Assembly (NCBI GenBank): GCA_964016885.1
Contig: OZ024756.1
Location: 24,490,001 to 24,554,000, forward strand
DNA: 64,000 nt
Source of the DNA: Eledone cirrhosa
Taxonomy: Eukaryota
Reading direction: 5' to 3'
Part shown: positions 31,580 through 54,898 of the stretch, piece after piece
Layout: every line of letters starts with the position of its first letter
Position numbering within the stretch: the first letter of the stretch is position 1
Translations under genes and position numbers: made by a program
Notes under the pieces: model-generated
The model's input: the letters and a program-made list of their open reading frames with translations, nothing else
Told to the model about the DNA's origin: nothing
The model's database searches: none

Positions 31580-33539
31580 ATGTCTGAATGCAACTATAGC
31601 GATATGTCGAAAGGACAAACTAGTAGTGGTGGTGGTGGTGGTGGTGGTGGTGCTAGTAGTAGTGGTGGTGGTAGTACTACTGGAACAGCAACACAGATTT
31701 GTTTCAGAATTGATTCAGGACGTGATTTTACTCTGGATTTTCAGCCTCACCAGACTCTTTGCGACATCCTTAGTCGAACTATCTACGACAGTAAGAACTT
31801 CTGTGTTACCCACAACGGTAAAGTTCTTTTATGGTATTTCCCACTTTCAGAACAAAACATAAAGCCTACCGCAGACAACAACTACATCGAATGTAAAATA
31901 CATGCTAAAACTACGAAACCTCGGAGAGTCTGCGACCGAACTGACCTCAGTAACTTCGAAAGCCTCTATGACAGCGATCCGGATGTTTTTCTAAATTCTT
32001 CAAACGGATGTTTAGACTGTAACACCACTTCCGAGATTTTTTGTGATGGCAACAACTACAGTTATGGCTGCTATTCCGATCACCAGATCAGCAACTGTCG
32101 GATCGATAGACAATCTCGATCGTTTACAGTTGGCGATGATAGAAAGAATGAGAAACGAATGAAAAAGCGGGAATACCAGAGAAGACGTTATGCCAATATG
32201 TCACTGGCAGATAAACAGATGCGACTGGAACAGATGAAAGCTTATGAACGGGCAAAACGTGCGAGAGAAACTTTAGCGGAGAGAGAAGCTCGCCTCATGA
32301 GGTTAAGAATCAATCAACACAGACGGATTGATATCGAATCTGAGCCTGATCGATTAAGGCGATTGCAGAGACTACAAAAGAACCAACGACATCGAATACT
32401 TACCGAAGACCCAGATGGTCGGCACAAAAGACTGATACGAATGAGAGAAAATGCCCGAATGCGCGTCGAAAGAAGAAAGGCAATTGCACAGATATTGGGA
32501 AGTTGTAAGAGAGGACGGAAAAAAACAACGACGGCCGAATTATTGATGAGGCAAGCCAGCGACAATTTATCTTTCATGAGATTGAACTCCAAAAACAATA
32601 ATAATATCTCGGGCCGTAATCAAGGATTTTCATCTACGGAGCAAGGACAGAAAAATCCGAATGAAAGACAAGATGATTTTAGTTATTTAAGCCAGAATGA
32701 TAAAAATGTGTGCAATACCCAGGACGGTAACAGACAAGGTGGAGCGTTGTATTTGGATTCAAGTCATAAAAATTCCAACGGAGAATTTGCTTATATGAAA
32801 GAGAATAATGGTCAATGCCAGAATAGGATTAAGACTGGGATGGAACGTGGATCGGCTGGTGGGGCTGTTTTACCGTGTATGGAGTCAAATATGAACAAGG
32901 GCGGCCTCAACAAAGAGGGTCTGACAGATAAAACAGATGCCGCTGGCATATTTTCTCACCTGCATTCTAACCAAAACAAGGATATTGCTGCTAAAGAAAT
33001 GGGCTTTGACTGTCTGACATCACCACAAAATTCTATCAACGAAGAGAATGGCAAAACGGTAGCGAACGAAAGAGATGCTGGATTTTCTTATATTAGTGCA
33101 GCCCAAGGTTTGGGTCTTTCCGACAGAGACGGGGCCTTTCCTTATCTCAAGCCTAACTATAAGCCAACCCAGGTTGACTGTGTACGTACTGAGATAATGA
33201 CACCTCGAAGTGAAGATCTACTGAACTTGGATGCTATTCAAAGTTCACTTGATCAGTCGGGCAAAGGAACGGCTAAGGGTGGTCACAACGACCCCGGAAA
33301 CAACAGCAACAACAACCTGACATTACTGGACATTGGTGGTCAACAAAAAACTGGCAATTCCTCTTGTTCGTTTGCTTCGTCGAAGGTAGTGAAACGGAAG
33401 AAGAAAAAATCGACATTTAATCAGGGTGAAGTAGGGGGTGATTTTGGTGCGCTTGGACAATTGGACGAATTAGGGGCACTCGACAAGAAAAACATTGATT
33501 GCATGTTAGGGTCTCCATTTTCACCGATCATTTCTCAAG
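31580..33539 (+). CDS. Uncharacterised STPR-repeat protein, coding exon 1 (ubiquitin-like domain + 4 STPR repeats + NLS-like patch)
   Basis: 653-codon open frame with non-repetitive coding-like composition. ATG at 31580; donor CAAG|GTAAGT, phase 1. Four exact 23-aa repeats at 32198-32473. Read-through of the donor would stop at 33553. Confidence 0.88.
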
Positions 33540-33752
33540 GTAAGTCTAAATAATAATAAAATTAATGCAATTATATATATATATATATATATACATATAG
33601 TCCAACCCATGCGAGCTTGGGAAAACGGATGTAAAAACGACAATGATAAATGTATATATATTTTGATAATAATATATTGTTTAATAAACACCATACACAA
33701 CACATTTCCTTATTGTTTACATTGAGTATGTAATAAACACGGATGCCTATAC

Positions 33753-33791
<39 letters not shown>

Positions 33792-34093
33792 CAAAACCAT
33801 ATATATATATATGGATGTATATATATACATACACACCCCCATCTATGTATGCATGTGTGTGAGGTATACATATATCAGACATTTTGAATATGTGATTATA
33901 AATATATAAATATATATATATGTCTGTGTTCGTGTGTATTGTTTAGTAAACACCATACATAACACATTTCCTTATTGTTTACATGCATGCCCAAATATAT
34001 ATAGATGTGTATGTGTAGTATATATATATATATATATATATATCGGACATTTTGAAAATGTATAACAAGTAATTTAATATGTGTGTGTATATA

Positions 34094-34163
<70 letters not shown>

Positions 34164-34640
34164 TCATAGATTGAGTTAGAAACTCAAAAGAGTCTTTTAC
34201 AATTAAATAGCTCAAGGAAGGGAATCTTTCCGAGCCGTGTAATACAAATGAATATATGAGAGAGATGAACATCTATACAAGTATACATGATTTATTATTT
34301 TAAATCGAGACAGGCAAACCATATTGTTTTAAATGAGTATTTTTTCAACCTAGCTAACTTGGTCATTTACAATTCGAACACATGTATACTTGTATAGGTG
34401 TTCATTCCTCTCATATATACACATATAGATAGTTAAGCATTTCTATTTGAAAGTTTCATTCTTCTGATGAATGTGATTCTACTGAAATTTTTTTTCGTAA
34501 TCACACCCTGCTAGATTTAACATGGAATTGTCAGTTATTTATCTACCATGGTACTGTCACACTATAAACAACATATTGAAACGTGTATATATGTGTGTAT
34601 ATATTTATATATATTGTGTCTGTGTATGTATGTGTATATG

Positions 34641-34679
<39 letters not shown>

Positions 34680-34979
34680 ATGTAGTGGTAAGAAAGAGCT
34701 GGACAGAAAGGTCTTCAGAGACGAAAGCCCCTCCCCCTCAAGCACATGTTTTGACCCTTAACTTCACACACATATACGAAACTATGCATGTATATATACA
34801 TACATATATTCATGTATATATATGAAGTCTGCGTAAGTTGTGATCTGTTCGACCTATGAACAGATGTAGTGGGATCCCAGGCGAGTTAACAGTGACGAGA
34901 TATTGTGTATGTGTCAGATTTACAAGGGTTAATAGTAAGAACACCAGTGAAATAAACTCTTTCCATTCTTGTGAAGGCT

Positions 34980-35690
34980 TTGTAGTAGTTGATAGCTTCT
35001 GTTACCCAGGTGATCCAATTAGCAATGGAAGAAGTTGCTCTGAATGTATTGTAGCCAGAATAAGAATAATATGGAAATAAGTTAAGGGAACTACTATCTC
35101 TGCTGGCAACAAAGGAATTTTGTCATTCCAAGCAAAAGGTAGATTGTATGATGCTTCATATGAAGTGCAGTGTTGCCTGACAATGAGATATGGACAACGA
35201 ATGCAGAAGATATGCAAAAGTTAAAATAAATGAGACTGGCATGTTCTGTTTTATGTGTAATGTTAATGTCCATGAAAGATGATGCAAGGATGATGATTGT
35301 TGGATGAAGGAATGCCAGGACTTCTGTCTATGCAGAACATAAATAAACATCACCATGTTGAATGTGAAGAGAAACGAAGGCTGGCTGTATGATGCCTGTG
35401 TGTGGTATGTGATTTACAATTAACATGGTATTGAGACAAGGCCATTGAATGCAGTGTGTATGCAAATGCTGGAAAGAAATGAAGTGAGCATGCTTCAACG
35501 GATGTGTAATGTTAATATGTGAGAATGATGAAGCATAGATGAACTAAAAGAAAAACTGTGTATAAGAGGAATCAGAATGCAGTGTGAAAGAGAGAAGACT
35601 GCTGGTATGGATGTTGATAGCTAGGTGAAGAAGTGACAAGGAAGATCTGGACAGCGGTAGTGGAGACTGATCTCAAATCCTCAGTGCTTT
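34980..35690 (+). mobile_element. Degenerate RTE-type LINE 3' region
   Basis: VVDSFCYPGDPISNGRSCSECIVARIRIIWK; homologous to 17560-18132, with a partial internal duplication. Confidence 0.7.
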
Positions 35691-36285
35691 GTAAAAAATC
35701 CAAGAGATCAGCTATGTATACACAATGTTTGTTGACATTTAAAAGCTGTGATTCAGCTATCTAATTTAAGACGGTAAGAGTTGTCACAGTCCCTTGGCTG
35801 GATGGTTTAAAGCACCTATCCTGTATCTGCGAGATATAGGGTTCAATTCCTCATAACAGCCAGTGGCAACTTTTTCCATCTTGAAGGGTCTTCACCCTAT
35901 TTTATAGTATCGCCATGCATGAGCACATCATTTTTTTATGTATATAGTTGAACTAATGCCAAAACATCCATTGAGGAGAAAAGAAACTAGACAAACTGAT
36001 ATTAGTAAGCTTCGCTCATATCTTCTCCCTGACTGCAGTTTCTGGAATTAGGAAACAATATTAATTATTCCAATAAATTAAGACAACCAGTATTGGAAGA
36101 AATTCTTTGATTGGAAGGATTCTTTGGGTATAGATAAAAATGTTCAATAGTGTATGAACCTTGTCATTATCAAACAATGTGGTGCATTGAATAACTCATG
36201 GATCATTTAACTACCAGATGAATTTGTGAATATCAGGATAATATTACAGGATCAGTGTGTATGTGTGTATAAAGTAAAAAAGACC

Positions 36286-36615
36286 CCCTTCAGTCATGAA
36301 TGACCATAGGATTTGCACCTAGAAAGTTCCCCTCCGAGGCACAAGTCCAGGCAAGGTTGTTTTTTTGTGGAAGACCCAGCAGTTGCCCATGCATACCAGT
36401 CTCCCCTCTCCACGTCACCGATGTTGTCCTAGGAAAAGGCAATGGCTGATACAGCTTGGCATCAGTGATGTTGCAACTCATTTCTACAGCTTAGTGAACT
36501 GGAGCAATGTGAAATAAAGTGTCTTGCTCAAGAAGGCAATGCAAAGCCCGGTCCGAGAATCGAATGCACAACCTCACAATTGTAAGCCCGATACTCTAAC
36601 CACTAAGCCATGCAC
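36286..36615 (-). mobile_element. Second tRNA-derived SINE family copy
   Basis: Minus strand starts GCATGGCTTAGTGGTTAGAG...CATTCGATTC...CTTGAGCAAGACACTTTATTTCACATTGCTCCAG; same family as 50052 and 51395. Confidence 0.75.
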
Positions 36616-36778
36616 GTGTCTGCTTCCCTACTTACTAAAACTTTAGTCTGCTAAGTTTTCTTTGAGGCTTCTCTTTTCTAGGATTTTCTTCAATGCCAGG
36701 AATTTCTTTTCTAAACCTTGTACAGATTCAGTTATAAGAACTACTCAAATATCATTTCAAGCAGGTGGTGGGTGAGAG

Positions 36779-37500
36779 TGGCACAGGACCTAGATAGCAC
36801 ATGAAAACAGGGATGGTGGCACAGGACCTAGATAGCACATGAAAACAGGGATGGTGGCACAGGACCTAGATACCACATGAAAACAGGGATGGAGACACAG
36901 GACCTAGATAGCACATGAAAACAGGGATGGTGGCACAGGACCTAGATAGCACATGAAAACAGGGGTGGTGGCACAGGACCTAGATAGCACATGAAAACAG
37001 GGATGGTGGCACAGGACCTAGATAGCACATGAAAACAGGGGTGGGGACACAGGACCTAGATAGCACATGAAAACAGTTGGTGACACTGGCACAGATGACA
37101 TAGATAGCATGTGGAAACAAAGGGAGTGATACTATGTCACACAGGACCTAAGTAGCATGTGGAAACAAGGGGAGTGATACTATGTCACACAGGACCTAAG
37201 TAGCATGTGGAAACAAGGGATTGACACTATGGCACACAAGACATAGGTAGCGCATAGAAATAGGGGTGGGGTGCAACATGGTTTACAGGACCCAGATACC
37301 ACATAGAAACAGGGGGTGCAACACTGACATACAGGACCTTGATAGCACATAGAAACAGGTGTGTAATACTGTGGTACACAAGACCTAGATAGCATTTGGA
37401 AACAAGGGGGTGTTATACAATGGCACACAGGACCCAGGTAGCACAAGAAAACAGGGGGAGTGAAACTATGGCACACGGGACCCAGGTAGAACATTGAAAC
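36779..37500. repeat. 38-bp minisatellite grading into diverged ~43-45-bp units
   Basis: Unit GGCACAGGACCTAGATAGCACATGAAAACAGGGATGGT. Confidence 0.92.
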
Positions 37501-37503
37501 AAG

Positions 37504-37731
37504 TTAACCCTTTATCATTTAAACCAGCCATATCCGGCTAGAATTCTCTCACCTCTTCCTGTTCAAACCGGCCATAACTGGCCACTCATACTGATGTTAA
37601 GATTGTGTTCTCAAAATAAATAATATCAAAATCTTTTTATTCGATATTATGTGAGATAATTATGTGAAATAAAGCCTTTACCATGAAAATATAATAGTAA
37701 ATATCGAGTAATGCAAATGCTAAAGGGTTAA
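37504..37731. mobile_element. piggyBac-type MITE copy (opposite orientation)
   Basis: TTAACCCTTTATCATTT ... AAATGCTAAAGGGTTAA. Confidence 0.8.
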
Positions 37732-37869
37732 TGGCATGTGGGAGATAGAGTTTTATTATTTTTTTAAAATATGCATCTTTAATTTCTCAGCTGTCACCCC
37801 AGAAGGGGATATATGATGTGTTCAGTTGTACACTGCTTAAAAAAGCAATGTTTGTTTAGCAACAGTTTA

Positions 37870-40380
37870 CCACCTGTGGGTCAAGATGGTGACAATATAT
37901 TACTTTGATCTCTCAGTTTACAGGTATTGTCTGTTATTAACACTGTGTCATCTCAAACTCCAAACACTGACCATCTGATGGTCAAGATGATAATATATAT
38001 ATATTACTTTGATATTAACATTGTGTCATCACAGACTCTAAACACTGACCATCTGATGGTCAAGGTGATGACAATATAATACTTTGATCTCTCAGTCTAC
38101 AGATATTGTCTGTCATTGACACTGTCATCACAGACTCTAAACACTGACCATCTGATGGTCAAGGTGATGACAATATAATACTTTGATCTCTCAGTCTACA
38201 GGTATTGTCTGTCATTGACACTGTCATCACAGACTCTAAACACTGACCATCTGATGGTCAAGGTGATGACAGTATAATACTTTAATCTCTCAGTCTACAG
38301 GTATTGTCTGTCATTGACACTGTCATCACAGACTCTAAACACTGACCATCTGATGGTCAAGGTGATGACAATATAATACTTTGATCTCTCAGTCTACAGA
38401 TATTGTCTGTCATTGACACTGTCATCACAGACTCTAAACACTGACCATCTGATGGTCAAGGTGATGACAATATAATACTTTGATCTCTCAGTCTACAGGT
38501 ATTGTCTGTCATTGACACTGTCATCACAGACTCTAAACACTGACCATCTGATGGTCAAGGTGATGACAGTATAATACTTTAATCTCTCAGTCTACAGGTA
38601 TTGTCTGTCATTGACACTGTCATCACAGACTCTAAACACTGACCATCTGATGGTCAAGGTGATGACAATATAATACTTTGATCTCTCAGTCTACAGGTAT
38701 TGTCTGTCATTGACACTGTCATCACATACTCTAAACACTGACCATCTGATGGTCAAGGTGACGACAATATAATACTTTGATCTCTCAGTCTACAGGTATT
38801 GTCTGTCATTGACACTGTCATCACAGACTCTAAACACTGACCATCTGATGGTCAAGGTGATGACAATATAATACTTTGATCTCTCAGTCTACAGGTATTG
38901 TCTGTCATTGACACTGTCATCACATACTCTAAACACTGACCATCTGATGGTCAAGGTGACGACAATATAATACTTTGATCTCTCAGTCTACAGGTATTGT
39001 CTGTCATTGACACTGTCATCACACTGACCATCTGATGGTCAAGGTGATGACAATATAATACTTTGATCTCTCAGTCTACAGGTATTGTCTGTCATTGATA
39101 CTGTCATCACATACTCTAAACACTGACCATCTGATGGTCAAGGTGATGACAATATAATACTTTGATCTCTCAGTCTACAGGTATTGTCTGTCATTGACAC
39201 TGTCATCACATACTCTAAACACTGACCATCTGATGGTCAAGGTGATGACAATACAATACTTTGATCTCTCAGTCTACAGGTATTGTCTGTCATTGACACT
39301 GTCATCACAGACTCTAAACACTGACCATCTGATGGTCAAGGTGATGACAATATAATACTTTGATCTCTCGGTCTACAGGTATTGTCTGTCATTGACACTG
39401 TCATCACATACTCTAAACACTGACCATCTGATGGTCAAGGTGATGACAGTATAATACTTTGATCTCTCAGTCTACAGGTATTGTCTGTCATTGACACTGT
39501 CATCACAGACTCTAAACACTGACCATCTGATAGTCAAGGTGATGACAATATAATACTTTGATCTCTCAGTCTACAGGTATTGTCTGTCATTGACACTGTC
39601 ATCACAGACTCTAAACACTGACCATCTGATGGTCAAGGTGATGACAATATAATACTTTGATCTCTCAGTCTACAGGTATTGTCTGTCATTGACACTGTCA
39701 TCACAGACTCTAAACACTGACCATCTGATAGTCAAGGTGATGACAATATAATACTTTGATCTCTCAGTCTACAGGTATTGTCTGTCATTGACACTGTCAT
39801 CACAGACTCTAAACACTGACCATCTGATGGTCAAGGTGATGACAATATAATACTTTGATCTCTCGGTCTACAGGTATTGGCTGTCATTGACACTGTCATC
39901 ACAGACTCTAAACACTGACCATCTGATGGTCAAGGTGATGACAATATAATACTTTGATCTCTCGGTCTACAGGTATTGTCTGTCATTGACACTGTCATCA
40001 CAGACTCTAAACACTGACCATCTGATGGTCAAGGTGATGACAATACAATACTTTGATCTCTCAGTCTACAGGTATTGTCTGTCATTGACACTGTCATCAC
40101 ATACTCTAAACACTGACCATCTGATGGTCAAGGTGATGACAATATAATACTTTGATCTCTCGGTCTACAGGTATTGGCTGTCATTGACACTGTCATCACA
40201 GACTCTAAACACTGACCATCTGATGGTCAAGGTGATGACAATATAATACTTTGATCTCTCAGTCTACAGGTATTGTCTGTCATTGACACTATCATCACAT
40301 ACTCTAAACACTGACCATCTGATGGTCAAGGTGATGACAATATAATACTTTGATCTCTCGGTCTACAGGTATTGGCTGTC
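37870..40380. repeat. 99-bp satellite, about 25 copies
   Basis: Unit ACACTGACCATCTGATGGTCAAGGTGATGACAATATAATACTTTGATCTCTCAGTCTACAGGTATTGTCTGTCATTGACACTGTCATCACAGACTCTAA. Confidence 0.97.
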
Positions 40381-40424
40381 TCAAAATATGCCATGTCTAA
40401 CACAGAAAGGGCATCCATAAAAAT

Positions 40425-40636
40425 GTTGATAGCGGTGATGTTGATGATGATGATAGTGATGGTGATGGTGACATTGGTGGTGTTAATGGTGGTAATGATG
40501 GTTGTGATGTTGATAGTGATAGTGGTGATGATAGTGATGGCAATGGTGATGATAAGGATACTGATAATGATGGTGATGTTGATAATGATAATGATGGTGG
40601 TGATGATAGTGATGAGGATAATGGTGATGATAATTG
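40425..40636. repeat. Degenerate (GAT/GGT)n trinucleotide tract
   Basis: Direct inspection. Confidence 0.9.
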
Positions 40637-41142
40637 TAAAAGAATGCTATTCCAACCCATGTTAATCAGTGGGAGGGAGTTTGCAGTAGATTAAATATTG
40701 GGAAGACCCCCTCCTCTCAAACCCCCCCCCCCATGTCTCTGTTATATCTATCTGAAACCCTTAAAAAGAGGAGGACACTAGATTGAAATCCATACTGGGA
40801 GAGTGGGATGGATGTGTATGTGGGGGATAAGGGTGGGTGAATAGAATCCTTCTAGAATTTTCCATCAACTTCACACTGTGACTCACTGGGATATCTCTCC
40901 CCCTCTACTGCTGTTCTGTTGCTTATTTTGATAAATCACCTTTGCCCATTGAAGCTCTCCTCCCCAACACCACCACCACCACCACCACTATCTCACACAA
41001 TTTACATTCACATATATGCATCTATCTACATACACACATCTATTTACACACACATTCATATATACACATCTTACCATATCTCCATAGCATTTCTCTCTAT
41101 CTCTCCCATTCTTCTCAGCTGTCTGTCTCCCCCCTCTCTCTC

Positions 41143-41144
41143 TA

Positions 41145-41212
<68 letters not shown>

Positions 41213-41228
41213 ATATATATATATATAT

Positions 41229-41268
<40 letters not shown>

Positions 41269-41866
41269 ATATATATATATATATATTATAATATATATAT
41301 ATATATATATATTATAATATATATATATATATATATATTATAATATATATATATATATATATATATTATAATATATATATATATATATTATAATATATAT
41401 ATATTATAATATATATATATATATATATATATTATAATATATATATATATATATATATTATAATATATATATATATATATATATATTATAATATATATTA
41501 TAATATATATTATATATATATTATAATATATATTATATATATATATATATATATTATAATATATATTATAATATATATTATATATATATTATAATATATA
41601 TTATATATATATTATAATATATATTATAATATATATATATAATATATATATAATATATATATAATATATATATATAAGCTTTGCCTTTCATCCTTATGGG
41701 GTCGATAAAATAAAGTACCAGTAATGCACTGGGATAATTGCTGGCCTTGTGCCAAAAGTAGAAACAATTATAATATATATTATATATATATTATAATATA
41801 TATTATATATATATTATAATATATATTATAATATATATTATAATATATATTATATATATATTATAT
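41143..41866. repeat. Compound (AT)n/TTATAA repeat interrupted by a SINE 3' fragment (41677-41770)
   Basis: (AT)n blocks punctuated by TTATAA. Confidence 0.93.
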
Positions 41867-42916
41867 GTGTATATTATTCAATTTAGGAAAGTTGATTGAT
41901 CAGATAATCCACTGATTTTGATTGTAAACAAATGTAAAGCACTCTATGGCTTGTATTCCTTAACGTTTTAGCATTTATATTACATTTTCATGGTAAAGGG
42001 TTTATCTCGCATAATATAGAATCTACGAGATTTTGATGATGATATTATTTATTTTGAGAACAATACCTTAATGTCAGTATGAGTGGCCAGTTATGGCCAG
42101 TTTGAACAGAAAGAGGTGAGAGAATTCTGGCCAGATACAGCCGATTTAAATGCTAAAGAGCTGAAGTACTATCAATAAGGTATTAACTGGAGTGTCAATA
42201 TTATAAAGAAGAGAGACAGTTTTAATTGAATATCTTCTGTTTATTATATAATCCTGATTATGTAATAAACAGAAGAGGTACATTTAAAACCATCTCTCTT
42301 CTTTATAATATATATATATATATATTTAAATAATTTGAAAGCCATACAATGCATTAGAAAGAAAATCAAGATTGCTAAAATAACAAAAGAATCTTATCTT
42401 AGCAAATATATAAGAAAATGACGGTTTTTTAAAAAAAAAGATGTCTTACACGGGTGAAAGTATAAGGAAAAGAAATTGAAAATGCAACTGGAGTCTTTTT
42501 AAGAATATTTATTTATTTACTTTACCGGTTTCTCAGTTCTTATGATTTTCATAAGTAAAATGGAGATGGAGGGTTTGTGTTTCTGTTGGGGTTTGTCTTA
42601 CCTTACTCTCTGTTTCTCTCTATCTATGATTCTTTGTATAATTTTAGCCATGCAGGACACTTTTTTCAAATATTTATATATATAATATTATATTATATTA
42701 TATGCAGGTAGACGACCAGTTAGGGTATTGTAATTGGTAGATCTCGAAGTATCCTGAGGTAAGCACTCAACATGCTGAAGCATCCCAGATTGCATCTGGT
42801 TGTTCAGGCAGAGTATCTGCAGTGCAGAATAAGTATGCAAGATTGGTTTTTACAATTTATTCAGAAATTTCCCAGTAAATTGTTGTAAAAACTCATCTTT
42901 CGGACTTATTCTTCAC

Positions 42917-42971
<55 letters not shown>

Positions 42972-43207
42972 CTGTTTCTTCCCTCTCTCTCTGTATTCAT
43001 CAGTGCTGTTCTTATCTAGAGAGGAACTGATAATATCATGGGTGGGGTGTATGGTGGTAGGGGGAGGGGCAACTGATCTGTTGCTAAGCAACAAAGATAT
43101 CAACTGCCATTACAGCCTGATAAGCCACCCCACCCCCTTTTTGCCCAGATCTTCTTTTTAACAAAAAAAAAGAAACTGTTGTCCCACAACAGTGATACTT
43201 TCCTAGC

Positions 43208-43838
43208 TTCACTACAACCACCACCACTACTACGATGCCACTACAACCACCACCACTACTACGATGCCACTACAACCACCACCACTACTACGATGCCACT
43301 ACAACCACCACCACTACTACGATGCCACTATAACCACCACTATTACTACTACTACTACTACTGCTGCTGCTGCTACTACTTCTACCACCACAACCGCTAC
43401 TACTACCACCGTCACTACAATTTTACATCTACTACACTACGATGCCACTACAACCACCACTACTACTACTACTACTACTACCACTGCTGCTACTACTTCT
43501 ACCACCACAACCGCTAAAACTACCACCACCATCACCACCACCACCACTACTACAATTTTACATCTACTACACTACAATGCCACTACAACCACCACCACAT
43601 CACAACTACCACTTTGACCACCACCACGACTACTACTACTACTACCACTGCTGCTACTACTTCTACCACCACAACCGCTAAAACTACCACCACCACCACC
43701 ACCACCACTACTACAATTTTACATCCACTACACTACGATGCCACTACAACCACCACCACATCACAACTACCACTTTGACCACCACCACGACTACTACTAC
43801 TACTACCACAACATTACATCCACTATACTACCATACCA

Positions 43839-43871
<33 letters not shown>

Positions 43872-43905
43872 ATTTAGCACCACCACACTATTTCAGCCAC
43901 CAACT
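43208..43905. repeat. (ACC)/(ACT) compound repeat with 30-bp and larger higher-order duplications
   Basis: CCACTACAACCACCACCACTACTACGATG-type units. Confidence 0.9.
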
Positions 43906-43915
43906 GATGAAGGCT

Positions 43916-46585
43916 GTGTGTGTGTTGTGTGTTAGGGATGTGTGTTGTGTGTTAGGGATGTGTGTTGTGTGTCAGGGATGTGTGTAGTGTGTCAGGGATG
44001 TGTGTTGTGTGTTAGGGATGTGTGTTGCGTGTTAGGGATGTGTGTTGTGTATTAGGGATGTGTGTTGTGTATTAGGGATGTGTGTTGTGTGTTAGGGATG
44101 TGTGTTGTGTGTTAGGGATGTGTGTTGTGTGTTAGGGATGTGTGTTGTGTGTTAGGGATGTGTGTTGTGTGTTAGGGATGTGTGTTGTGTATTAGGGATG
44201 TGTGTTGTGTGTTAGGGATGTGTGTTGTGTATTAGGGATGTGTGTTGTGTATTAGGGATGTGTGTTGTGTGTTAGGGATGTGTGTTGTGTGTTAGGGATG
44301 TGTGTTGTGTGTTAGGGTTGTGTGTTAGGGATGTGTGTTGTGTATTAGGGATGTGTGTTGTGTATTAGGGATGTGTGTTGTGTGTTAGGGTTGTGTGTTG
44401 TGTATTAGGGATGTGTGTTGTGTATTAGGGATGTGTGTTGTGTGTTAGGGATGTGTGTTGTGTATTAGGGATGTGTGTTGTGTGTTAGGGATGTGTGTTG
44501 TGTATTAGGGATGTGTGTTGTGTATTAGGGATGTGTGTTGTGTATTAGGGATGTGTGTTGTGTGTTAGGGATGTGTGTTGTGTATTAGGGATGTGTGTTG
44601 TGTGTTAGGGTTGTGTGTTGTGTATTAGGGATGTGTGTTGTGTATTAGGGATGTGTGTTGTGTGTTAGGGATGTGTGCTGTGTATTAGGGATGTGTGTTG
44701 TGTGTTAGGGATGTGTGTTGTGTGTTAGGGATGTGTGTTGTGTATTAGGGTTGTGTGTTGTGTGTTAGGGATGTGTGTTGTGTGTTAGGGTTGTGTGTTG
44801 TGTATTAGGGATGTGTGTTGTGTATTAGGGATGTGTGTTGTGTGTTAGGGATGTGTGCTGTGTATTAGGGTTGTGTGTTAGGGATGTGTGTTGTGTGTTA
44901 GGGATGTGTGTTGTGTATTAGGGTTGTGTGTTGTGTGTTAGGGATGTGTGTTGTGTGTTAGGGATGTGTGTTGTGTGTTAGGGATGTGTGTTGTGTATTA
45001 GGGATGTGTGTTGTGTGTTAGGGATGTGTGTTGTGTGTTAGGGATGTGTGTTGTGTATTAGGGATGTGTGTTGTGTGTTAGGCATGTGTGTTGTGTGTTA
45101 GGGATGTGTGTTGTGTGTTAGGGATGTGTGTTGTGTGTTAGGGATGTGTGTTGTGTGTTAGGGATGTGTGTTGTGTATTAGGGATGTGTGTTGTGTATTA
45201 GGGATGTGTGTTGTGTGTTAGGGATGTGTGTTGTGTATTAGGGATGTGTGTTGTGTGTTAGGGATGTGTGTTGTGTGTTAGGGATGTGTGTTGTGTATTA
45301 GGGATGTGTGTTGTGTGTTAGGGATGTGTGTTGTGTGTTAGGGATGTGTGTTGTGTGTTAGGGATGTGTGTTGTGTGTTAGGGATGTGTGTTGTGTGTTA
45401 GGGATGTGTGTTGTGTATTAGGGATGTGTGTTGTGTATTAGGGATGTGTGTTGTGTGTTAGGGATGTGTGTTGTGTGTTAGGGATGTGTGTTGTGTGTTA
45501 GGGATGTGTGTTGTGTGTTAGGGATGTGTGTTGTGTATTAGGGATGTGTGTTGTGTATTAGTGATGTGTGTTGTGTGTTAGGGATGTGTGTTGTGTATTA
45601 GGGATGTGTGTTGTGTGTTAGGGATGTGTGTTGTGTGTTAGGGATGTGTGTTGTGTGTTAGGGATGTGTGTTGTGTGTTAGGGATGTGTGTTGTGTATTA
45701 GGGATGTGTGTTGTGTATTAGGGATGTGTGTTGTGTGTTAGGGATGTGTGTTGTGTGTTAGGGATGTGTGTTGTGTATTAGGGATGTGTGTTGTGTGTTA
45801 GGGATGTGTGTTGTGTGTTAGGGATGTGTGTTGTGTATTAGGGATGTGTGTTGTGTGTTAGGGATGTGTGTTGTGTGTTAGGGATGTGTGTTGTGTGTTA
45901 GGGATGTGTGTTGTGTGTTAGGGATGTGTGTTGTGTGTTAGGGATGTGTGTTGTGTATTAGGGATGTGTGTTGTGTGTTAGGGATGTGTGTTGTGTATTA
46001 GGGATGTGTGTTGTGTGTTAGGGATGTGTGTTGTGTGTTAGGGATGTGTGTTGTGTGTCAGGGATGTGTATGTTGTGTGTCAGGGATGTGTGTAGTCTGT
46101 CAGTGATGTGTGTGTGATGTGTGTTGTGTGTCAGGGATGTGTGTTGTCTGTCAGTGATGTGTGTGTGATGTGTGTTGTGTGTCAGGGATGTGTGTTGTCT
46201 GTCAGGGATGTGTGTGTGTAGTGTGTCAGGGATGTGTGTGTGTAGTGTGTCAGGGATGTATGTGTGTTGTCTGTCAGTGATGTGTGTGTGATGTGTGTAG
46301 TGTGTCAGGGATGTATGTGTGTAGTCTGTCAGTGATGTGTGTGTGATGTGTGTTGTGTGTCAGGGATGTGTGTTGTCTGTCAGTGATGTGTGTTGTGTGT
46401 TAGGGATGTGTGTTGTGTGTGTGTGATGTGTGTAGTATGTCAGGGATGTGTGTAGTCTGTCAGGGATGTGTGTAGTGTGTCAGGGATGTGTGTTGTCTGT
46501 CAGTGATGTGTGTAGTGTGTCAGGGATGTGTGTGTGTAGTGTGTCAGGGATGTGTGTGTGTAGTGTGTCAGGGATGTGTGTGTCA
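43916..46585. repeat. 20-bp GT-rich satellite with TTAGGG in most units, about 130 unit-lengths
   Basis: Unit GGGATGTGTGTTGTGT(G/A)TTA; degenerates to TCAGGG variants after about 46060. Confidence 0.97.
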
Positions 46586-46639
46586 GTTTAATCCAGGGTT
46601 CTATATTGTTACTACTATTTATTATCATTATCTATATCA

Positions 46640-46815
46640 GTATCGGTCGAGAGTCAGACACCATGCTTTGAAGCATAGAGTTACGTCCCTTTATGATCTG
46701 AGTTCAAATCCCGCCGAGGTTAACTTTGCCTTTCAGCCTTACGGGGTCAATAAAATAAAGTACCAGTAATGTACTGGGTAATTGCTGGCCTTGTGCCTAA
46801 AAATAGAAACAATTA
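46640..46815 (+). mobile_element. tRNA-derived SINE
   Basis: Matches the 54703 copy and directly abuts the 84-bp array. Confidence 0.88.
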
Positions 46816-48288
46816 TCTATATACTAAGGTTGGTGGCTTGACAGAGCTGTTACATTCTGAGTTCAAATCCTACTGAGGTCAACTTTACCTTCCTTATTAT
46901 CTATATATTAAGGTTGGTGGCTTGACAGAGCTGTTACATTCTGAGTTCAAATCCTACTGAGGTCAACTTTACCTTCCTTATTATCTATATATTAAGGTTG
47001 GTGGCTTGACAGAGCTGTTACATTCTGAGTTCAAATCCTACTGAGGTCAACTTTACCTTCCTTATTATCTATATATTAAGGTTGGTGGCTTGACAGAGCT
47101 GTTACATTCTGAGTTCAAATCCTACTGAGGTCAACTTTACCTTCCTTATTATCTATATATTAAGGTTGGTGGCTTGACAGAGCTGTTACATTCTGAGTTC
47201 AAATCCTACTGAGGTCAACTTTACCTTCCTTATTATCTATATATTAAGGTTGGTGGGTTGACAGAGCTGTTACATTCTGAGTTCAAATCCTACTGAGGTC
47301 AACTTTACCTTCCTTATTATCTATATATTAAGGTTGGTGGCTTGACAGAGCTGTTACATTCTGAGTTCAAATCCTACTGAGGTCAACTTTACCTTCCTTA
47401 TTATCTATATATTAAGGTTGGTGGCTTGACAGAGCTGTTACATTCTGAGTTCAAATCCTACTGAGGTCAACTTTACCTTCCTTATTATCTATATATTAAG
47501 GTTGGTGGCTTGACAGAGCTGTTACATTCTGAGTTCAAATCCTACTGAGGTCAACTTTACCTTCCTTATTATCTATATATTAAGGTTGGTGGGTTGACAG
47601 AGCTGTTACATTCTGAGTTCAAATCCTACTGAGGTCAACTTTACCTTCCTTATTATCTATATATTAAGGTTGGTGGCTTGACAGAGCTGTTACATTCTGA
47701 GTTCAAATCCTACTGAGGTCAACTTTACCTTCCTTATTATCTATATATTAAGGTTGGTGGCTTGACAGAGCTGTTACATTCTGAGTTCAAATCCTACTGA
47801 GGTCAACTTTACCTTCCTTATTATCTATATATTAAGGTTGTTGGCTTGACAGAGCTGTTACATTCTGAGTTCAAATCCTACTGAGGTCAACTTTACCTTC
47901 CTTATTATCTATATATTAAGGTTGGTGGCTTGACAGAGCTGTTACATTCTGAGTTCAAATCCTACTGAGGTCAACTTTACCTTCCTTATTATCTATATAT
48001 TAAGGTTGGTGGCTTGACAGAGCTGTTACATTCTGAGTTCAAATCCTACTGAGGTCAACTTTACCTTCCTTATTATCTATATATTAAGGTTGGTGGCTTG
48101 ACAGAGCTGTTACATTCTGAGTTCAAATCCTACTGAGGTCAACTTTACCTTCCTTATTATCTATATATTAAGGTTGGTGGCTTGACAGAGCTGTTACATT
48201 CTGAGTTCAAATCCTACTGAGGTCAACTTTACCTTCCTTATTATCTATATATTAAGGTTGGTGGCTTGACAGAGCTGTTACATTCTGA
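46813..48288 (+). repeat. 84-bp satellite, about 17.5 copies, derived from a SINE head
   Basis: Unit TTATCTATATATTAAGGTTGGTGGCTTGACAGAGCTGTTACATTCTGAGTTCAAATCCTACTGAGGTCAACTTTACCTTCCTTA. Confidence 0.97.
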
Positions 48289-48703
48289 TTTCCATCACCC
48301 ACTGCCCCCTTCCACACTGTTTTTTGTCCTATGTTGTTGTTATTGCTACTCCCTCTCCTATTTCTAACTTGTTTTTCTTATGTATTTCACCTGCCTTTCT
48401 ATTGGTGTCTCTAACACCTTGCACTCTTGTGACCTTTGAAGGAATTTATTAGTACTATTATTTTGTTATTATTGTCGATAAAATAAAGTACCAGTAATGC
48501 ACTGGGATAATTCCTGGCCTTGTGCCAAAAGTAGAAACAATTATTATGTTTAAGCTCTTTACAAATTCCGCTGGAGTCAACTTCATCTTCCATCCTTCCA
48601 GGGTCGATAAAATAAAGTACCAGTTAAGTACTGGCTGGGCTTGATATAATCACCCCCCCCCCCCCTAAAATTGTTGGCCTCGTGCTTAAATCAAACCATT
48701 ATT

Positions 48704-48900
48704 TTGGCAGTTTCAGTAAAGCGTCAGACACCATGCTTTGCAGCATAGAGTTATGACCCTTTACGTTCTGAGTTCAAATCCCGTCGAGGTTAGCTTTGCC
48801 TTTCATCCTTACGGGGATGATAAAATAAAGTACCAGTAATGCACTGGGGGTAATTGCTGGCCTTGTGCCAAAAGTAGAAACAATTATTATTATTATTATT
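48704..48900 (+). mobile_element. tRNA-derived SINE with (ATT)n tail
   Basis: TTGGCAG head, GAGTTCAAATCC B box, core and GTAGAAACAATT(ATT)n end. Confidence 0.88.
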
Positions 48901-48953
48901 GTTAATGTAGCATATTTCCATTCTAATAGTTGTGTTCTGTTTGTTTTTTGTAG

Positions 48954-49871
48954 AATTCTATAACAACTCTACAACGGAGATGATGACTCCGAAAGACAGG
49001 AAGCTTCTGAAGATGAGGCTGAAGCAACGGAGACGTCTTCACACAGAGACAGAAGCACAACGCAACAAACGTCTACAGCGCATGAAACGTTACCAACACC
49101 AACGCATGGCTGCCGAGGACCCAGAACATCGCCAGAAAAGGCTGATACGCATGCGAGAGAACGCGAGGAGACGCGAAGAGAGGAAGAAAGCTATAGCGCA
49201 ACTGTTGGGAAACAGCCACAAGGGAAAGAAAAAGTCGCAAGCCATTGCATTCCTAATGCGGCGGATGAAAGACAACGAGAGTTTGCTGCAGTATCAGAAT
49301 ATGCTCAACCGTGACGGCAGTAATTTGTCAAAGGTGTCTTCAAAGAACACGGATAAAGATTTCGGCTACATGTGTCCTGACGACAAGACCTGTGGAAACT
49401 TAGATGAAGGCCCCTGTTTTTCCAGCGAATGTAGCAAGTCTTGCAGGCAAGGAAATTCCTGTTGTAACGGAGAATTTCCTTACCTGAAAGAAAACGGTCG
49501 GCAATGCCAGAGCAGAAGCCACTCCAAAGGAACTCCGAATGGCTCTTACTCTTGTATGGAGCCACCAATGGACAGTAATAAAGATATGACGGAGAGAGGG
49601 TCTACTGGAGAAGTTGTCTTCCCTTCTTTCAACCAGATCCAGAACAGGGTGAACACAGATGGTGATGGAGGTAGCAATAATTTTGGTTGTTATTCCTCGG
49701 ACCAGAACAAATCGATGTCTAGCAGTGTGTCTGACTGTTCTTACATGAACAGCTGCAGCATGGGCAATGATGGATGCTACTCTAACATGAAATGCTCTCA
49801 AGATGGTAAGAAGAGGAAGAAAGGATGCGATGACTGTCTCTCTTCGTCACCGCTATCTTCCATGAATGAAG
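48954..49871 (+). CDS. Uncharacterised STPR-repeat protein, coding exon 2 (symmetric phase 1-1, 918 nt)
   Basis: Acceptor ttgttttttgtag, donor GAAG|GTAAGT. Paralogous to exon 1 (EDPEHRQKRLIRMRENARRREERKKAIAQLLG; NGEFPYLKEN). Confidence 0.85.
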
Positions 49872-50051
49872 GTAAGTACCACTATGATGATGATGACGAT
49901 GATGGTAGTGATGGTGGTGATGGTGGTAGGGATGATTGTAGTTTGGGGGTGGTAGTGAGGATGATGATGGTGCTGGTAGCTTATTGCAATGCGTAGTTGA
50001 GTGTGTGTGATATTTATATATATATATATATAAATATATATATATACATGT

Positions 50052-50390
50052 GGAGGCACATGGCTTAGTGGTTAGAGCATTGGCCTTGCAATCGAAAGGT
50101 TGTGAGTTCAATTCTCAGACCGGGTGATGTGTTGTTTCCTTGAGCAAGACACTTTATTTCACATTGCTCCAGTTTACTCAGCTGTAGAAATGAGATGGAA
50201 GGAACTGGGGTCCCTATCATTCCACTGCAAAGTGGTCGTGGAGGTGCCACGGCAAAAAAAGCACCCAGCACTCACTGTAAATGAGGTTGGTGTTAGGAGG
50301 GCATCCAGCTGTAGAAATCAAGCCAGAATCAGTTCCCGTCCCACCCTTGCAAGCAGGGAAAAGTGGACGTAAAATGAAATGATGATGATG
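50052..50390 (+). mobile_element. Second tRNA-derived SINE family copy (possibly composite)
   Basis: TGGCTTAGTGG A box, GAGTTCAATTC B box, (GAT)n tail. Confidence 0.75.
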
Positions 50391-51226
50391 ATATATATAA
50401 TATAAGATCAAAAGATGGTTAAAAGAGTTCCAAATATTTTATTATGCGCATTTCAAAAACAAATATCATCATTTGATGATATCTGCGTTTTCATCAGATA
50501 ATTATATTTGCCTTGCTTTATTGTGCTACAATAAAACTCACCTCCTACATTATATATATATATATATCTTGCAAGCAGGGAAAAGCGGACGTAAAATGAT
50601 GATGATACGAGAGAGAGAGAGAGTGGGGTGAATGAGAGAGAAATTAACGCATCTAGCTACACACATCATCATCATCATTATCATCTTCGTTTAACGTCTA
50701 TTTTCCACGCCAGCATGGGTTAGATGGGAGTTGTCCCACTTGAGTCAAGGTTGGTCGGATGACCGTGTCTCGCTCATATAGGACTATCTGGCAGTCTTTC
50801 TACGGCTGGATGCCCTTCCTAACCCCAACCACATTTAAAGTGTGGAGCTGGGAACTTTTTACCGTGTTACCTACACGGCCACATTACAGCGTGGACTGTG
50901 TGTTTTTTCTCGTGACACCTACACAATCTCGATCTCATTATCTCATTTATTTGGACTGGATGTTGTGGTACCAACTTTATAGAGAGAGGGTGGTGTTGGT
51001 GGGAGTGGGAGGATAGGGTAGGGGTAGTGGATTGGGATGTATATTTGGTTAAGAGGTGCCTACTGACTAGGTTTCGCTTTCTACATAGGCAAGGCGGGTC
51101 TTCTGTATTACTGCGTAGCACCAAAGATCTCGGTCCAGTGACATTGTCTTAGAGAGGTGCAAGTGTGTATGGGGGAGTAGTTTTGAATGTATGATTGAAT
51201 TGAGCGAGAATGTAACACATGCATAG

Positions 51227-51269
<43 letters not shown>

Positions 51270-51667
51270 AGGACCGTCATATTTGTATGATACAAAGAGC
51301 CAGTGAGAGTGTAACTATACACACACATGTAGATATACACACACACACACACTATAAATACCATATAATATATGTTTATATATATATAGTGGTGAAGGCG
51401 TGTGGCTGAGTGGTTAGAGAATTGGATTCACAATCTTGAGGTTGTGAGTTCGAGTCCTGGACCGATCGATGCGTTATGTCCTTGAGCAAGACATTTTATT
51501 TCACGTTGCTCCTTCTACCTGGAGTTGCGACCGATAGATAGTACTAGCAACTGGAAAGACCGATGGAAACATTGTTTCCTCGGTCCGATTTGACGAAAGT
51601 CGATCGCAAAAAAAAAAAAAAAAAAAATATATATATAGTGCTTAAAACCTACTTTATCTCATTGCAG

Positions 51668-53196
51668 ATTGTTATGAATGCTGTGCTAACAATATGATGT
51701 GTGGCCCCGACTGTGACCAAGGATCGAAACTTAAAGGAACCCAATTCAACGATGGCAACTGCGTGAACCCTCGAGAGAAAAGACTCGAACAGATGAGGCA
51801 GTACCAGCGGAAACGGTTAGAGAATGAATCGACTGAGGAACGACAGAAACGGCTAGAACGCATGCGGATGAATTCCAAGGTGCGCGTGGAAAGAAAGCGC
51901 ATGATGGTACAGATGATGAAGACCGGCCAAAAACCTCGTGACAAGGGGTCAACTTTGACTGAGCAGGACTCTCTCCTGCGCTACCCGGACGTCTGTGAGC
52001 AAGATGGGAACGTGGATAACTTCTGTATTGAGCAGACCGGGTTGAAAGGCAAAGAAGACCGCTTGCAGACTGCAAAAGGAAACCCAAACGAGGAACAGTC
52101 TCCTGATTTTGCATACGTCGGCTCAAACCAAAAGGCAGTGGTGAACAGACAGTCGGACTACCTTTATTCCAAGTCGAACATGTCAACAGACAACCACGGC
52201 AAGACAATGTCAGATCGAGACAGTGGGTTTATGGGTCGCAACCAAGTAAACAATAAAATTGTGCCGGAGAGGGGGAGTGTCTTCCCATGTATGGATCAAA
52301 TAACTGGCAAGAACGAACTGGATCGAGCCAGTTTGGGTGGTCCGGTGTTTCCCGGAATGACGCTGATCTCAAACAAGGACACACACGACAAGGGCCCCGT
52401 CTTTCCTTGTATGGATCAGGAGCAAAACAAGAACCTCCCTGCTGACCGAGGAGTAACTGGTGCAGGGGGAGGTGCAGATGTAACCGCAACAGCAACTGGC
52501 GGCGGCGGCGGCGGTGGTGGAGGAGGAGGAGGAGCGACGGCTTCTGGGGCTGGTGGTGGAATGGCAGGAGGGCCGTTCTGTCTGAATCCCTATCAGGCTG
52601 AAGTGACATCGGCTGACAGAGCGTCTATGTTTCCTTACGGTGTTCAGTCCCAGAACAAAGACCCAAATGATAAAGCTGGCGGTGTGATCCATTCATTCTT
52701 CAACCAAAACCAAGGTCGGAACATGACCGACCGAGATATAAACTTCCCTTGCATAATCCCCGAACAGAATCGAATGTCAAACTTCTCGTACATGAACCCT
52801 TACCATGGTGGTGGCGTTGCTGGCGGCAACCTTGACCGGGATGGAAACTGCTCTTACCTGAAAACAGTGCCGGATGTTAGAAAAAAAACTGACCATGGTC
52901 ATCGGAAAAAAGAGGTGGAGTCTTCTAGTTCTGCATTTTCTTCTTCTGTCGTCAACTACGGGAAATCTGCTGATACTGGAATGCAAATGTATTCGAAGCA
53001 AAGTCTCGGCTATATGTGTATTTCGTGTGAAAGGCCATTGCCTAGAGATCAACTGAGTCGATTTTCACCATTTCCTGGTTCGCTGATCCCAGATCACGAT
53101 CCCAACAAACTCGCAGACCAACAGAAGCAGTGGATATGCAAGACCTGTGAGAAATTAAAAAGGAACTACCACTTATTTCCGAACCCCGTCAGCTAA
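51668..53196 (+). CDS. Uncharacterised STPR-repeat protein, terminal coding exon 3 (STPR repeats, Gly-rich tract, C-terminal C4 zinc finger)
   Basis: Acceptor ctttatctcattgcag, phase 1, in frame with the 500-aa ORF; TAA ends at 53196. Contains ESTEERQKRLERMRMNSKVRVER and CISC-x36-CKTC. Confidence 0.87.
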
Positions 53197-53261
53197 TTTT
53201 TCTGCTGTTTTGCAACTTCCATTGAAACAATCTTCCTTATAACACACACTATTCTACATTC

Positions 53262-53510
53262 TATACACTCTACTCCACTCCAAATACCATTACTGCACAA
53301 CACTCCACTTCACAAACCTTCACTCCACTCCAAATACCATCACTTCACAACACTCCAATCTACTCCACTCCAGATACCATCGCTTCACAACACTCCAATC
53401 TACTCCACTCCAGATACCATCGCTTCACAACACTCTACTTCACATATCATCAGTCCACTCCAAATACCAACACTCCACAACACATACCCTCACTCCACTC
53501 CCACATTACT
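53262..53510. repeat. ~40-bp imperfect tandem repeat in the presumptive 3'UTR
   Basis: Unit TACTCCACTCCAGATACCATCGCTTCACAACACTCCAATC. Confidence 0.8.
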
Positions 53511-53634
53511 ACACACCAAATCTACAAAAAATAAAAAAAATAAAAAACAGGCAAAAGAAAGAATTATATATATAGATATGTATGTATACATACATATATA
53601 TGCACATGTATATCTATATAGGTATAGATATACA

Positions 53635-53693
<59 letters not shown>

Positions 53694-54702
53694 CTTTATG
53701 TGTTTATGTGTGTATTTATGAAAACCAGTGGGGTGGTAATGTCTCTCCAAAATTACTCTACTCATAAATTCTATCGTTCCCCTTCATTTTAACCAGAAAA
53801 AACAATGACTTCACGCACATACTAACATATACTAACATACACAATCACACACACACACACAAACACTTTGTCTGAATCTTATGTCCTTCTAAACAAGACA
53901 ATGTTGTTAGTATGTCCTTCTCCCTCCCAGAATCATTTATCATTATGAATCCCTACGCTATACTCAAACACTGGGCCCCTGCCTTCCCCCCCCCCCCCCC
54001 ATTAAACATTCACTTCCAGCCCCTTCCTTACCATCCCGTTAAAATCCAGCCTCAGATTTTGTTAAACTCTAAATCGCATTATCATCTGAATCTAACCCCA
54101 ACCCTACCTACTGAGCTTTGCCCTCTTCAAATAAGGTGGCTGGTTGGCTCATTAGAGCTTTGAACAAACTACCTTATGGTATTTGTTTCAGAGTTTTTAT
54201 TCTGGTACCAGTCAAATGCTGGGGTAGATTTAAACACATTCGCTTTCCCAAAATTGCTGGTCTTGTGCCTAAATCAGAAATCATTATCATTATTGTTATT
54301 ATTGTTATTATTTATTATTTATTATTATTATTATTAGGGCGGTGAACTGGCAATATTGGTAGAGTGTCAGACACCATGTTCCGAAGCATAGAGTTATGAC
54401 TTTTTATAATTTCTGAGTTCAAAGCCTGCGACAGTTAACTTTGCCTTTCATCCTTACGGGGTCGATAAAATAAAGTACCAGTAATACACTGGATAATTGC
54501 TGGCCTTGTGCCAAAAGTAGAAACCATTATTATCATTATCATTGGTAATGTTGGACAACATGCTTTGTGGCATGTAGTTACGTCTCTCTACATTCTGAGT
54601 TCAAATGCTGCCAAGTTTAGTTTTTGTAATGCACTGAGGTCGATTTAATTGACTTTCCTCTCCCCGCAAATTGTTAGCCTTGTGCCTAAATCAGAAAGCA
54701 TT

Positions 54703-54898
54703 TTGGCAGTATCGGTAGAGGGTCGGACGCCATGCTTTCCAGCATAGTTACGTCCCTTTACGATCTGAGTTCAAATCCCGCCGAGGTTGACTTTGCCTTT
54801 CATCCTTACGGGGTCGATAAAATAAAGTACCAGTAATGCACTGGGTAATTGCTGGCCTTGTGCCTAAAGTAGAAACAATTATTATTATTATTATTATT
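54703..54898 (+). mobile_element. tRNA-derived SINE, full length, within a cluster (about 54338-55025)
   Basis: TTGGCAGTATCGG A-box-like head, GAGTTCAAATCC B box, conserved core, (ATT)n tail; neighbours at 54338 and 54898. Confidence 0.9.

Follow-up and report, generated by a model that had tools for sequence, protein, structure and literature searches.

A spliced octopus gene with STPR repeats and a C4 finger similar to that of Helentron transposases: a possible rolling-circle domestication

The RepHel proteins of the Helentrons (HLE2) are long assemblies in which, as in P0049 from Branchiostoma lanceolatum, 23-aa repeats and a C4 finger accompany DUF6570 (PF20209), OTU, Helitron_like_N, PIF1 and EN domains, DUF6570 being the marker of HLE2 according to the HELIANO work (PMC11417382). 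The same work presents the STPR domain (PF21107) as almost exclusive to HLE1 and interprets it as a captured host domain. STPR repeats are also found in host factors, such as Bombyx FMBP-1 (PDB 5d23), human ZNF821 and Drosophila CG14440/CG14442 (PF21107; PMC4856987), and for the first of these the residues of the repeat that contact DNA have been described (PMC4856987). By its description, FMBP-1 is a protein of 218 aa that consists of an acidic/basic N-terminus and four repeats, without a finger of the kind considered below.

Domesticated DNA-binding factors are well cataloged for cut-and-paste transposons, octopus included (PMC10027918), and the gene described here is like them in that a transposon binding module would have been kept while the catalytic domains are gone; it is unlike those surveyed in that they come from cut-and-paste transposons, Helitrons and STPR being absent from the main text of that survey. 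Closer in origin are the inactive VTD genes of insects, which are related to the deubiquitinase domains of Helentrons (PMC9741609): these too are host genes from an N-terminal accessory domain of a Helentron, often with several copies per protein, although what was retained there is a protease-fold domain and not a DNA-binding repeat with a finger. In the open-access literature, searched mostly through listings, we found no report of a host factor formed from the repeat-plus-finger module of a Helentron, and none on the gene LOC115221555 or on STPR in cephalopods; STPR and Helitrons appeared together, in the literature so covered, in the HELIANO work (PMC11417382 and its bioRxiv version).

The gene lies in a window of 64 kb, the whole stretch of Eledone cirrhosa DNA that was analyzed, which is repeat-rich animal DNA. 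It resembles the Helentron proteins in its order of parts, with 23-residue repeats of the form E-T/S-x6-R first and a finger of the form [YF]xCxxCxR...W[IV]CxTC further downstream. In contrast to them, it ends 15 aa past the finger, without DUF6570, OTU, Rep, helicase or endonuclease, and it possesses introns, a linker of 300–400 aa and three repeat blocks, the repeats of which carry R20, as in FMBP-1, whereas those of the sampled Helentrons commonly carry R21. With FMBP-1 it shares 23-aa repeats having E1, T/S2, R6, R9, L10, M13 and R20, but its blocks are three and separated, not one, and they are followed by a terminal C4 finger.

We propose that this is a host gene domesticated from the N-terminal module of a Helentron, that is, from STPR-like 23-residue repeats followed by a C4 finger, a tentative account to which we would give a little less than an even chance; the broader claim that the finger is derived from a Helentron, whether by domestication of the joint module or by way of a chimera, seems to us probable. 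The Helentron proteins used for comparison (P0011–P0071) were gathered with the finger-plus-DUF6570 region of P0006, a DUF6570/OTU protein of Helentron type that is the best match of the octopus finger outside its own family. This query brought in 61 more proteins, with DUF6570 in 61/61, Helitron_like_N in 58/61 and PIF1 in 45/61, and, being seeded from P0006, the sample leans towards it and is without HLE1 or cephalopod elements.

Structure and surroundings of the gene

The open reading frame list shows three long plus-strand frames in the window. Canonical GT/AG sites connect them across two phase-1 introns, which gives a coding sequence of 1,468 codons with a single stop (Table 1), and the frame that bears the finger, of 516 aa, constitutes the last coding exon of this spliced gene. 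That these might be three separate genes was considered and rejected, because the GT/AG sites join the frames in phase and because the Octopus sinensis protein spans both junctions. This orthologue, LOC115221555, of 1,443 aa (the one match among two candidates in the search with the finger), aligns over the three exons and both junctions with 82% identity.

Table 1. Features of the gene, with positions in the window
Feature	Position	Strand	Details
Coding exon 1	31580..33539	+	ATG 31580, GT donor 33540; ubiquitin-like lead domain, STPR block 1, linker; without finger
N-terminal domain, possibly ubiquitin-like (lead only)	31703..31924	+	2 differences in 72 aa from O. sinensis
STPR block 1	32198..32476	+	4 repeats
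Intron 1	33540..48953	+	15.4 kb, phase 1, satellite-filled
Coding exon 2	48954..49871	+	AG/GT, phase 1 on both sides; STPR block 2 and linker; without finger
STPR block 2	48977..49186	+	2–3 repeats; PF21107 29.8 bits; PDB 5d23 FMBP-1 E 1.9e-11
Intron 2	49872..51667	+	1.8 kb, phase 1
Coding exon 3	51668..53196	+	AG acceptor 51666–51667; STPR block 3, low-complexity linker, C4 finger, stop
STPR block 3	51757..51897	+	About 2 repeats of 23 aa
C4 finger C-x2-C-x36-C-x2-C	53011..53166	+	Homologous-looking to the pre-DUF6570 finger of Helentron RepHel proteins
15-residue tail after last Cys, with stop codon	53149..53196	+	Stop at 53194–53196
Two AATAAA hexamers, candidate polyadenylation signals	53530..53544	+	

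The exons are paralogous (exon 1 against 2, E 8e-43; 1 against 3 and 2 against 3, E 8e-20), each of them being made up of an STPR block (PF21107) and then a low-complexity linker, and only the third continues into a finger; a degenerate finger 3′ of exon 1 or 2 was not found with the family profile in six frames. A protein of 436 aa, P0007, is a single STPR-linker-finger unit that scores the three exons about equally (143–153 bits), and this layout, in matching all three, fits the triplication of such a unit. Together with P0005 and P0072, it is a protein that we infer to be from cephalopods. The linkers of the three exons share short F/Y-[PSA]-[CY]-[MLI] motifs, which P0007 and P0072 also present. 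For the N-terminal domain, the leads in the Atlas are ubiquitin/SUMO-like clusters (score 0.84–0.86), and no match was found for it in Pfam.

Between the two octopuses the stretch from the finger to the stop differs at 1/61 residues and the linker sequence, outside the STPR blocks and the N-terminal domain, at 203/1,081 (finger against rest, Fisher p 1e-4), the differences in the three STPR blocks being 5/93, 8/70 and 7/47. An intact frame, introns, an orthologue in a second species and constraint at the level of the protein are the marks of a host gene, and this is a real, constrained one.

Of the body of a transposon there is no trace in the window. Rep, PIF1 and DUF6570 were not found anywhere in its 64 kb by motif patterns, tblastn or profiles: the Rep/PIF1 motif patterns gave one loose RG..H.H match in a minus-strand CA-repeat stretch, tblastn of 62 Helentron-type proteins returned the finger only, and the DUF6570 and RepHel-body profiles stayed below 0 bits in six frames (best for DUF6570, −3.7 bits). 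Since no Rep, PIF1 or DUF6570 remnant is present in the window, the octopus gene is not a Helentron; the earlier note had seen neither Rep nor PIF1 motifs downstream of the finger, and the absence extends to the window as a whole. Sub-terminal repeats were sought among inverted-repeat pairs, the 25 longest of the 854 being mainly AT microsatellite and dispersed repeats. Beyond the stop codon there is no remnant of RepHel; the stop-free frames at 53197–53575 were rejected as coding, as they consist of C/A-rich tandem repeats and are likely 3′ UTR, and 53197–53688 has no match in Pfam.

In the surroundings, an OPLAH-like 5-oxoprolinase gene of many exons runs on the minus strand from 26183 down to at least 6251 (first coding exon 26183–26010; Pfam Hydant_A_N, E 6e-21, at 23273–23635), is transcribed away from the STPR gene and offers an anchor for synteny. 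Between both genes, at 29–33 kb, the observed/expected CpG ratio is about 1. Intron 1 contains three satellites, at 38024–40380 (a 99-mer, 24 copies), 43919–46581 (a 20-mer, 133 copies) and 46812–48292 (an 84-mer, 17.6 copies, 99% match), and dispersed repeats occur in opposite orientations (36471–36612/50059–50200; 37510–37633/42035–42158; 54330–55000), one short interspersed repeat, probably SINE-like, having several copies in the window.

The repeats and their counterparts in Helentrons

The Arg/Glu-rich repeats of the gene are genuine STPR by their matches to PF21107 and to FMBP-1 (PDB 5d23, E 1.9e-11). With the PF21107 cut-off at 27 bits, exon 2 lies above it (Table 1), exon 1 reaches 26.3 and exon 3 22.8, and the O. 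sinensis protein 60.2. Among nine units of the family, seven of them taken from the window and two from P0007, E1 is present in 8/9, T/S2 in 7/9 and R9 in 9/9, and of the residues by which FMBP-1 contacts DNA the family preserves, besides R9, R6 (8/9), L10 (9/9), M13 (7/9) and R20 (8/9), with Y16 in 3/9. As these contact residues are kept, it may fairly be expected that the octopus blocks bind DNA.

The repeats of the Helentrons were followed by their periodicity in place of the single-repeat STPR profile of the family, which reaches at least 10 bits in only 1/55 of the regions upstream of the finger. In the Helentron proteins that have at least 46 residues upstream of the finger, the best period just before it is 23 in 38/55 (36 of them with z above 4), and in a control region downstream in 1/55. 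The 23-aa E-T/S-x6-R repeats that precede the finger in the sampled RepHel proteins are mostly missed by PF21107, which matches 3 of the 23 scanned, one of them above the cut-off. Repeats of 23 aa are thus frequent among the sampled HLE2 transposases (38/55), at odds with the published restriction of STPR nearly to HLE1. The order of repeats followed by a finger, which the earlier note gave for proteins of this kind, is thus the usual one in Helentrons.

However, the repeats of the two groups are mostly not of the same kind, FMBP-1-like units being present in only 4/56 Helentron proteins. In 182 sampled Helentron units, R6 occurs 10 times, L10 19 times, M13 10 times and R20 11 times, and R21 128 times; the family repeat profile gives about 29 bits per stretch to FMBP-1, and 6.3 to the best Helentron protein. 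The distance also differs, the last Helentron repeat beginning 27–68 residues before the finger (n = 32) and that of the octopus about 320–400 aa before it. The octopus STPR being of the FMBP-1 kind, from which the majority of the Helentron repeats sampled differ, repeats and finger may have arrived separately. The placement of PF21107 almost wholly in HLE1, as a captured domain, in the HELIANO work likewise speaks against a joint arrival.

This leads to the alternative of a chimera, in which an existing host STPR factor of FMBP-1/ZNF821 type would have acquired nothing but the finger, through the insertion of a Helentron, much as host-transposase fusion genes arise. The far better score of the repeats against FMBP-1 and the length of the linker would both be natural in such a case, as would the behavior of the fingers, which move and duplicate alone within Helentron proteins. 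On the other hand, a chimera needs the chance rejoining of repeats and finger in the domain order seen in 38/55 Helentron proteins, no intron separates the two in exon 3, and FMBP-1-like units do exist in some Helentron proteins (P0042 and P0049 are examples), in a sample that has neither HLE1 nor cephalopod elements. With this evidence we regard the chimera as rather unlikely, and the joint domestication of repeats and finger as the preferred reading.

The terminal finger

The 156 bases of the finger encode 52 residues, YMCISCERPLPRDQL...WICKTCEKLKRN, with the Cys codons at 53017, 53026, 53137 and 53146, so that translation bears out the C-x2-C-x36-C-x2-C pattern of the earlier note, as well as its statement that the frame stops just afterwards, the stop being 15 residues past the last Cys. 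The four Cys are invariant across all 5 family members found, no relative having lost them, and the tail is identical in 4/5 members, its length and the stop position being equal in 5/5. Six-frame translation of the window contains a single W-[ILV]-C-x2-C but 19 instances of Y-x-C-x2-C, whereby the pattern of the first knuckle alone would be chance; it is the presence of both knuckles within one long frame, and their conservation, that makes the finger real.

No described family claims it: neither Pfam nor NCBIfam gave a significant match (the best, Pfam Zf_2nd_IFT121, E 0.007, is below the cut-off), nor did the PDB sequences (best E 0.12), and tblastn against phage genomes found nothing. When the last 68 residues were compared by phmmer with 1.84 billion representatives, 7 matches were obtained: P0006, three members of the family and three unrelated proteins with tandem repeats. 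The latter (P0008–P0010) were discarded as spurious, since they align with the linker only, through a tandem repeat, and do not have the cysteines; P0006 has E 6.4e-7, a value summed over five stretches and near those of the three spurious matches. P0006 contains five fingers of this kind, the last of which immediately precedes DUF6570, with OTU after it, and is itself without Rep. In the Atlas, 20/30 matches fall in the set marked by PF20209, DUF6570 (26–30% of members), with a score of 0.91–0.92 that shuffled proteins attain 4–10 times in 100.

Among the 61 relatives of P0006 the finger pattern adjoins DUF6570 in 56, and of the other five, four are truncated N-terminally and the fifth carries a knuckle of variant sequence. 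Additional fingers, without DUF6570, occur in tandem in P0006 (five in all) and in P0011 (three), and such duplication indicates that the finger is a separable module. The extra fingers of P0006 stand in low-complexity linkers, and Pfam contains no family for this finger.

The octopus finger, taken as a 71-mer, scores 28.1 bits against a profile of 17 Helentron fingers from which P0006 had been left out, and the best of 177,635 PDB sequences, a set that includes many host zinc fingers, scores 14, the two values being not strictly equal in kind, as the PDB control used default filters, whereas the local score was computed with none. Shuffled 71-mers reach the score of the octopus finger in 0/1,999 cases with Cys fixed (15 bits at most), in 0/2,000 with Cys, Y and W fixed, in 0/2,000 with the first knuckle fixed and in 1/2,000 with the second (WICKTC) fixed; with a profile of 56 sequences, no shuffle reaches it in any of the four sets. 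In the context of the whole protein the score drops, to 20.8 bits for exon 3 and 18.2 for the O. sinensis protein, and hmmsearch often broke the match to the finger into two local ones. In the opposite direction, the best stretch for the family profile is a finger in 57/57 of the Helentron-type proteins that have one. Profile against profile, hhalign relates the family to the Helentron fingers with 96.9% probability and a score of 53.5 (94.8% when another pair of alignments was used), the maxima in three series of shuffled columns, 100 shuffles each, being 31.6 (Cys fixed), 32.4 and 47.7. A finger of the type that precedes DUF6570 is therefore present in the octopus gene, with a similarity that is weak but above controls.

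This similarity is confined to two short knuckles, [YF]xCxxCxRxxxR and KxWICKTC. In Helentron fingers the R after the second Cys is found in 51/56, the W in 43/56 and the T before the fourth Cys in 53/56; P(−4), V(−1), H(+1) and Y(+5), which surround their first knuckle, do not recur in the octopus family, and the spacer between the Cys pairs is of 34–36 residues in the family and of 36–59 in the Helentrons. In two trees made with 25/56 Helentron fingers, the second without four long-branch extra fingers, the family stands next to the Helentron fingers on a single long branch with good support, the trees being unrooted, without outgroup, and of 78 columns.

Could it then be any treble-clef C4 finger, without a special link to Helentrons, the likeness being due to convergence or to very remote ancestry? 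Some 12 informative residues match, with about 25% identity between the octopus and Helentron fingers, treble clefs are widespread, a number of unrelated fingers in Pfam match weakly, and in hhalign the shuffled profiles with the WICKTC knuckle fixed still average 87.6% probability. Nevertheless, no finger family of the PDB or Pfam is significant, two independent and unbiased searches led to DUF6570 proteins, the shuffles with fixed knuckles almost never attain the score, and the 23-aa repeats are a partner common to both. All this makes a generic finger quite improbable. The best match is not, then, a host zinc-finger family lacking ties to Helitrons, and the resemblance to the RepHel finger of Helitrons that the earlier note had perceived holds in so far as the nearest outside relatives are rolling-circle fingers, those of Helentrons (HLE2) before DUF6570, but not of Helitrons generally.

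As regards structure, the model of the octopus finger, built from 4 sequences, is too poor to use (pLDDT 60.5; best Z 2.4), and nothing significant was obtained with it in the Foldseek and VIA searches. The model of a Helentron finger is better (pLDDT 83.9), and its weak neighbors are treble clefs (Z 2.5–3.4): FYVE 2yw8 (Z 3.4, rmsd 3.0, 46 aligned), ZAD 1pzw (Z 2.9, rmsd 3.1, 52 aligned) and GATA1 3vd6 (Z 2.8), with no Foldseek match at E ≤ 0.001. Treble clefs include modules of dimerization, of partner binding and of DNA binding; the matches to ZAD, FYVE and GATA are weak, tied and without a sequence match, and their function is not transferable to the Helentron finger.

Origin, possible mechanism and significance

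The direction, from transposon to host, is one that we infer from distribution, as the host form comprises five sequences and the finger-DUF6570 pair is found in elements of amphioxus, mussel and fish. In the reverse direction, the STPR-finger unit would be an old host gene that Helentrons captured; Helitron-like elements do capture host domains, STPR is treated as such in the HELIANO work (PMC11417382), host factors with STPR occur widely among animals (PMC4856987), and the finger tree, being unrooted, is compatible with it. However, a host family so small, the extension of the finger-DUF6570 pair over such different animals, the fungi included among the few labeled members of the Atlas clusters of the finger, and the fact that DUF6570 is reported to mark the whole HLE2 clade (PMC11417382) make the transposon form look older and wider, and capture from a host distinctly improbable. 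That the locus is a decaying or non-autonomous Helentron fragment without host function, in a lineage where O. sinensis has 55,718 HLE1 and 5 HLE2 copies (PMC11417382), is hardly credible given an intact spliced frame of 1,468 codons with two introns, a named orthologue, domain-specific conservation and no RepHel remnant after the stop.

Under the preferred hypothesis of a domesticated N-terminal module, the steps could have been: (i) the cutting of the open reading frame of a Helentron just after the finger, where DUF6570 starts, with the gain of a stop; (ii) host selection upon a single STPR-linker-finger unit, a layout that would survive in P0007; (iii) and finally, the lengthening of the linker and the triplication of the unit as phase-1 exons, the finger being kept by the last copy only. 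Elements that could have contributed it are present in cephalopods, with 5 HLE2 in O. sinensis and 21 in Euprymna scolopes (PMC11417382, Table S10). The earlier note, which spoke of a gene domesticated from a rolling-circle transposon, is upheld in that the gene appears to have been retained by the host, with introns, an orthologue and 1/61 changes, and has to be qualified in that the direction is deduced and the repeats may have arrived separately.

In the resulting protein, each 23-aa repeat would be a helix lying in the major groove and reading the shape of some 4 bp of AT-rich DNA, as in FMBP-1, and the three blocks would thus allow binding at multiple sites. The finger would hold one zinc, in the manner of a treble clef, and, as the 15-residue tail is invariant in 4/5 members, we lean, with somewhat better than even confidence, towards a role of finger and tail in protein contact or dimerization, the direct reading of DNA being possible but less likely. 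Thus, of the claim that only the DNA-recognition parts were kept, what stands is the portion referring to the STPR blocks, for which binding is predicted, and not that referring to the finger, whose Helentron counterpart is weakly similar to treble clefs (Z about 3). The whole could act as a regulator bound to chromatin, transcriptional or of repeats, without transposase activity.

A more far-reaching possibility, speculative and on balance unlikely, is that STPR originally served Helitron-like transposases as their arm for recognizing DNA, combined in Helentrons with a treble-clef finger hitherto undescribed, and that the host STPR factors (the cephalopod gene, FMBP-1, ZNF821 and CG14440/CG14442) are repeated domestications of rolling-circle elements. 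In that case rolling-circle elements would be an origin of animal transcription factors that present catalogs lack, and the octopus protein would still read Helitron-derived or AT-rich repeats throughout the genome. Because the repeats are common in HLE2, both the origin of STPR and the role of the Helentron N-terminus are directly testable. If the proposed domestication is true, rolling-circle transposons would be added to the sources of transcription factors, and the gene would be a candidate for a lineage-specific regulator in genomes that carry tens of thousands of Helitron-like copies.
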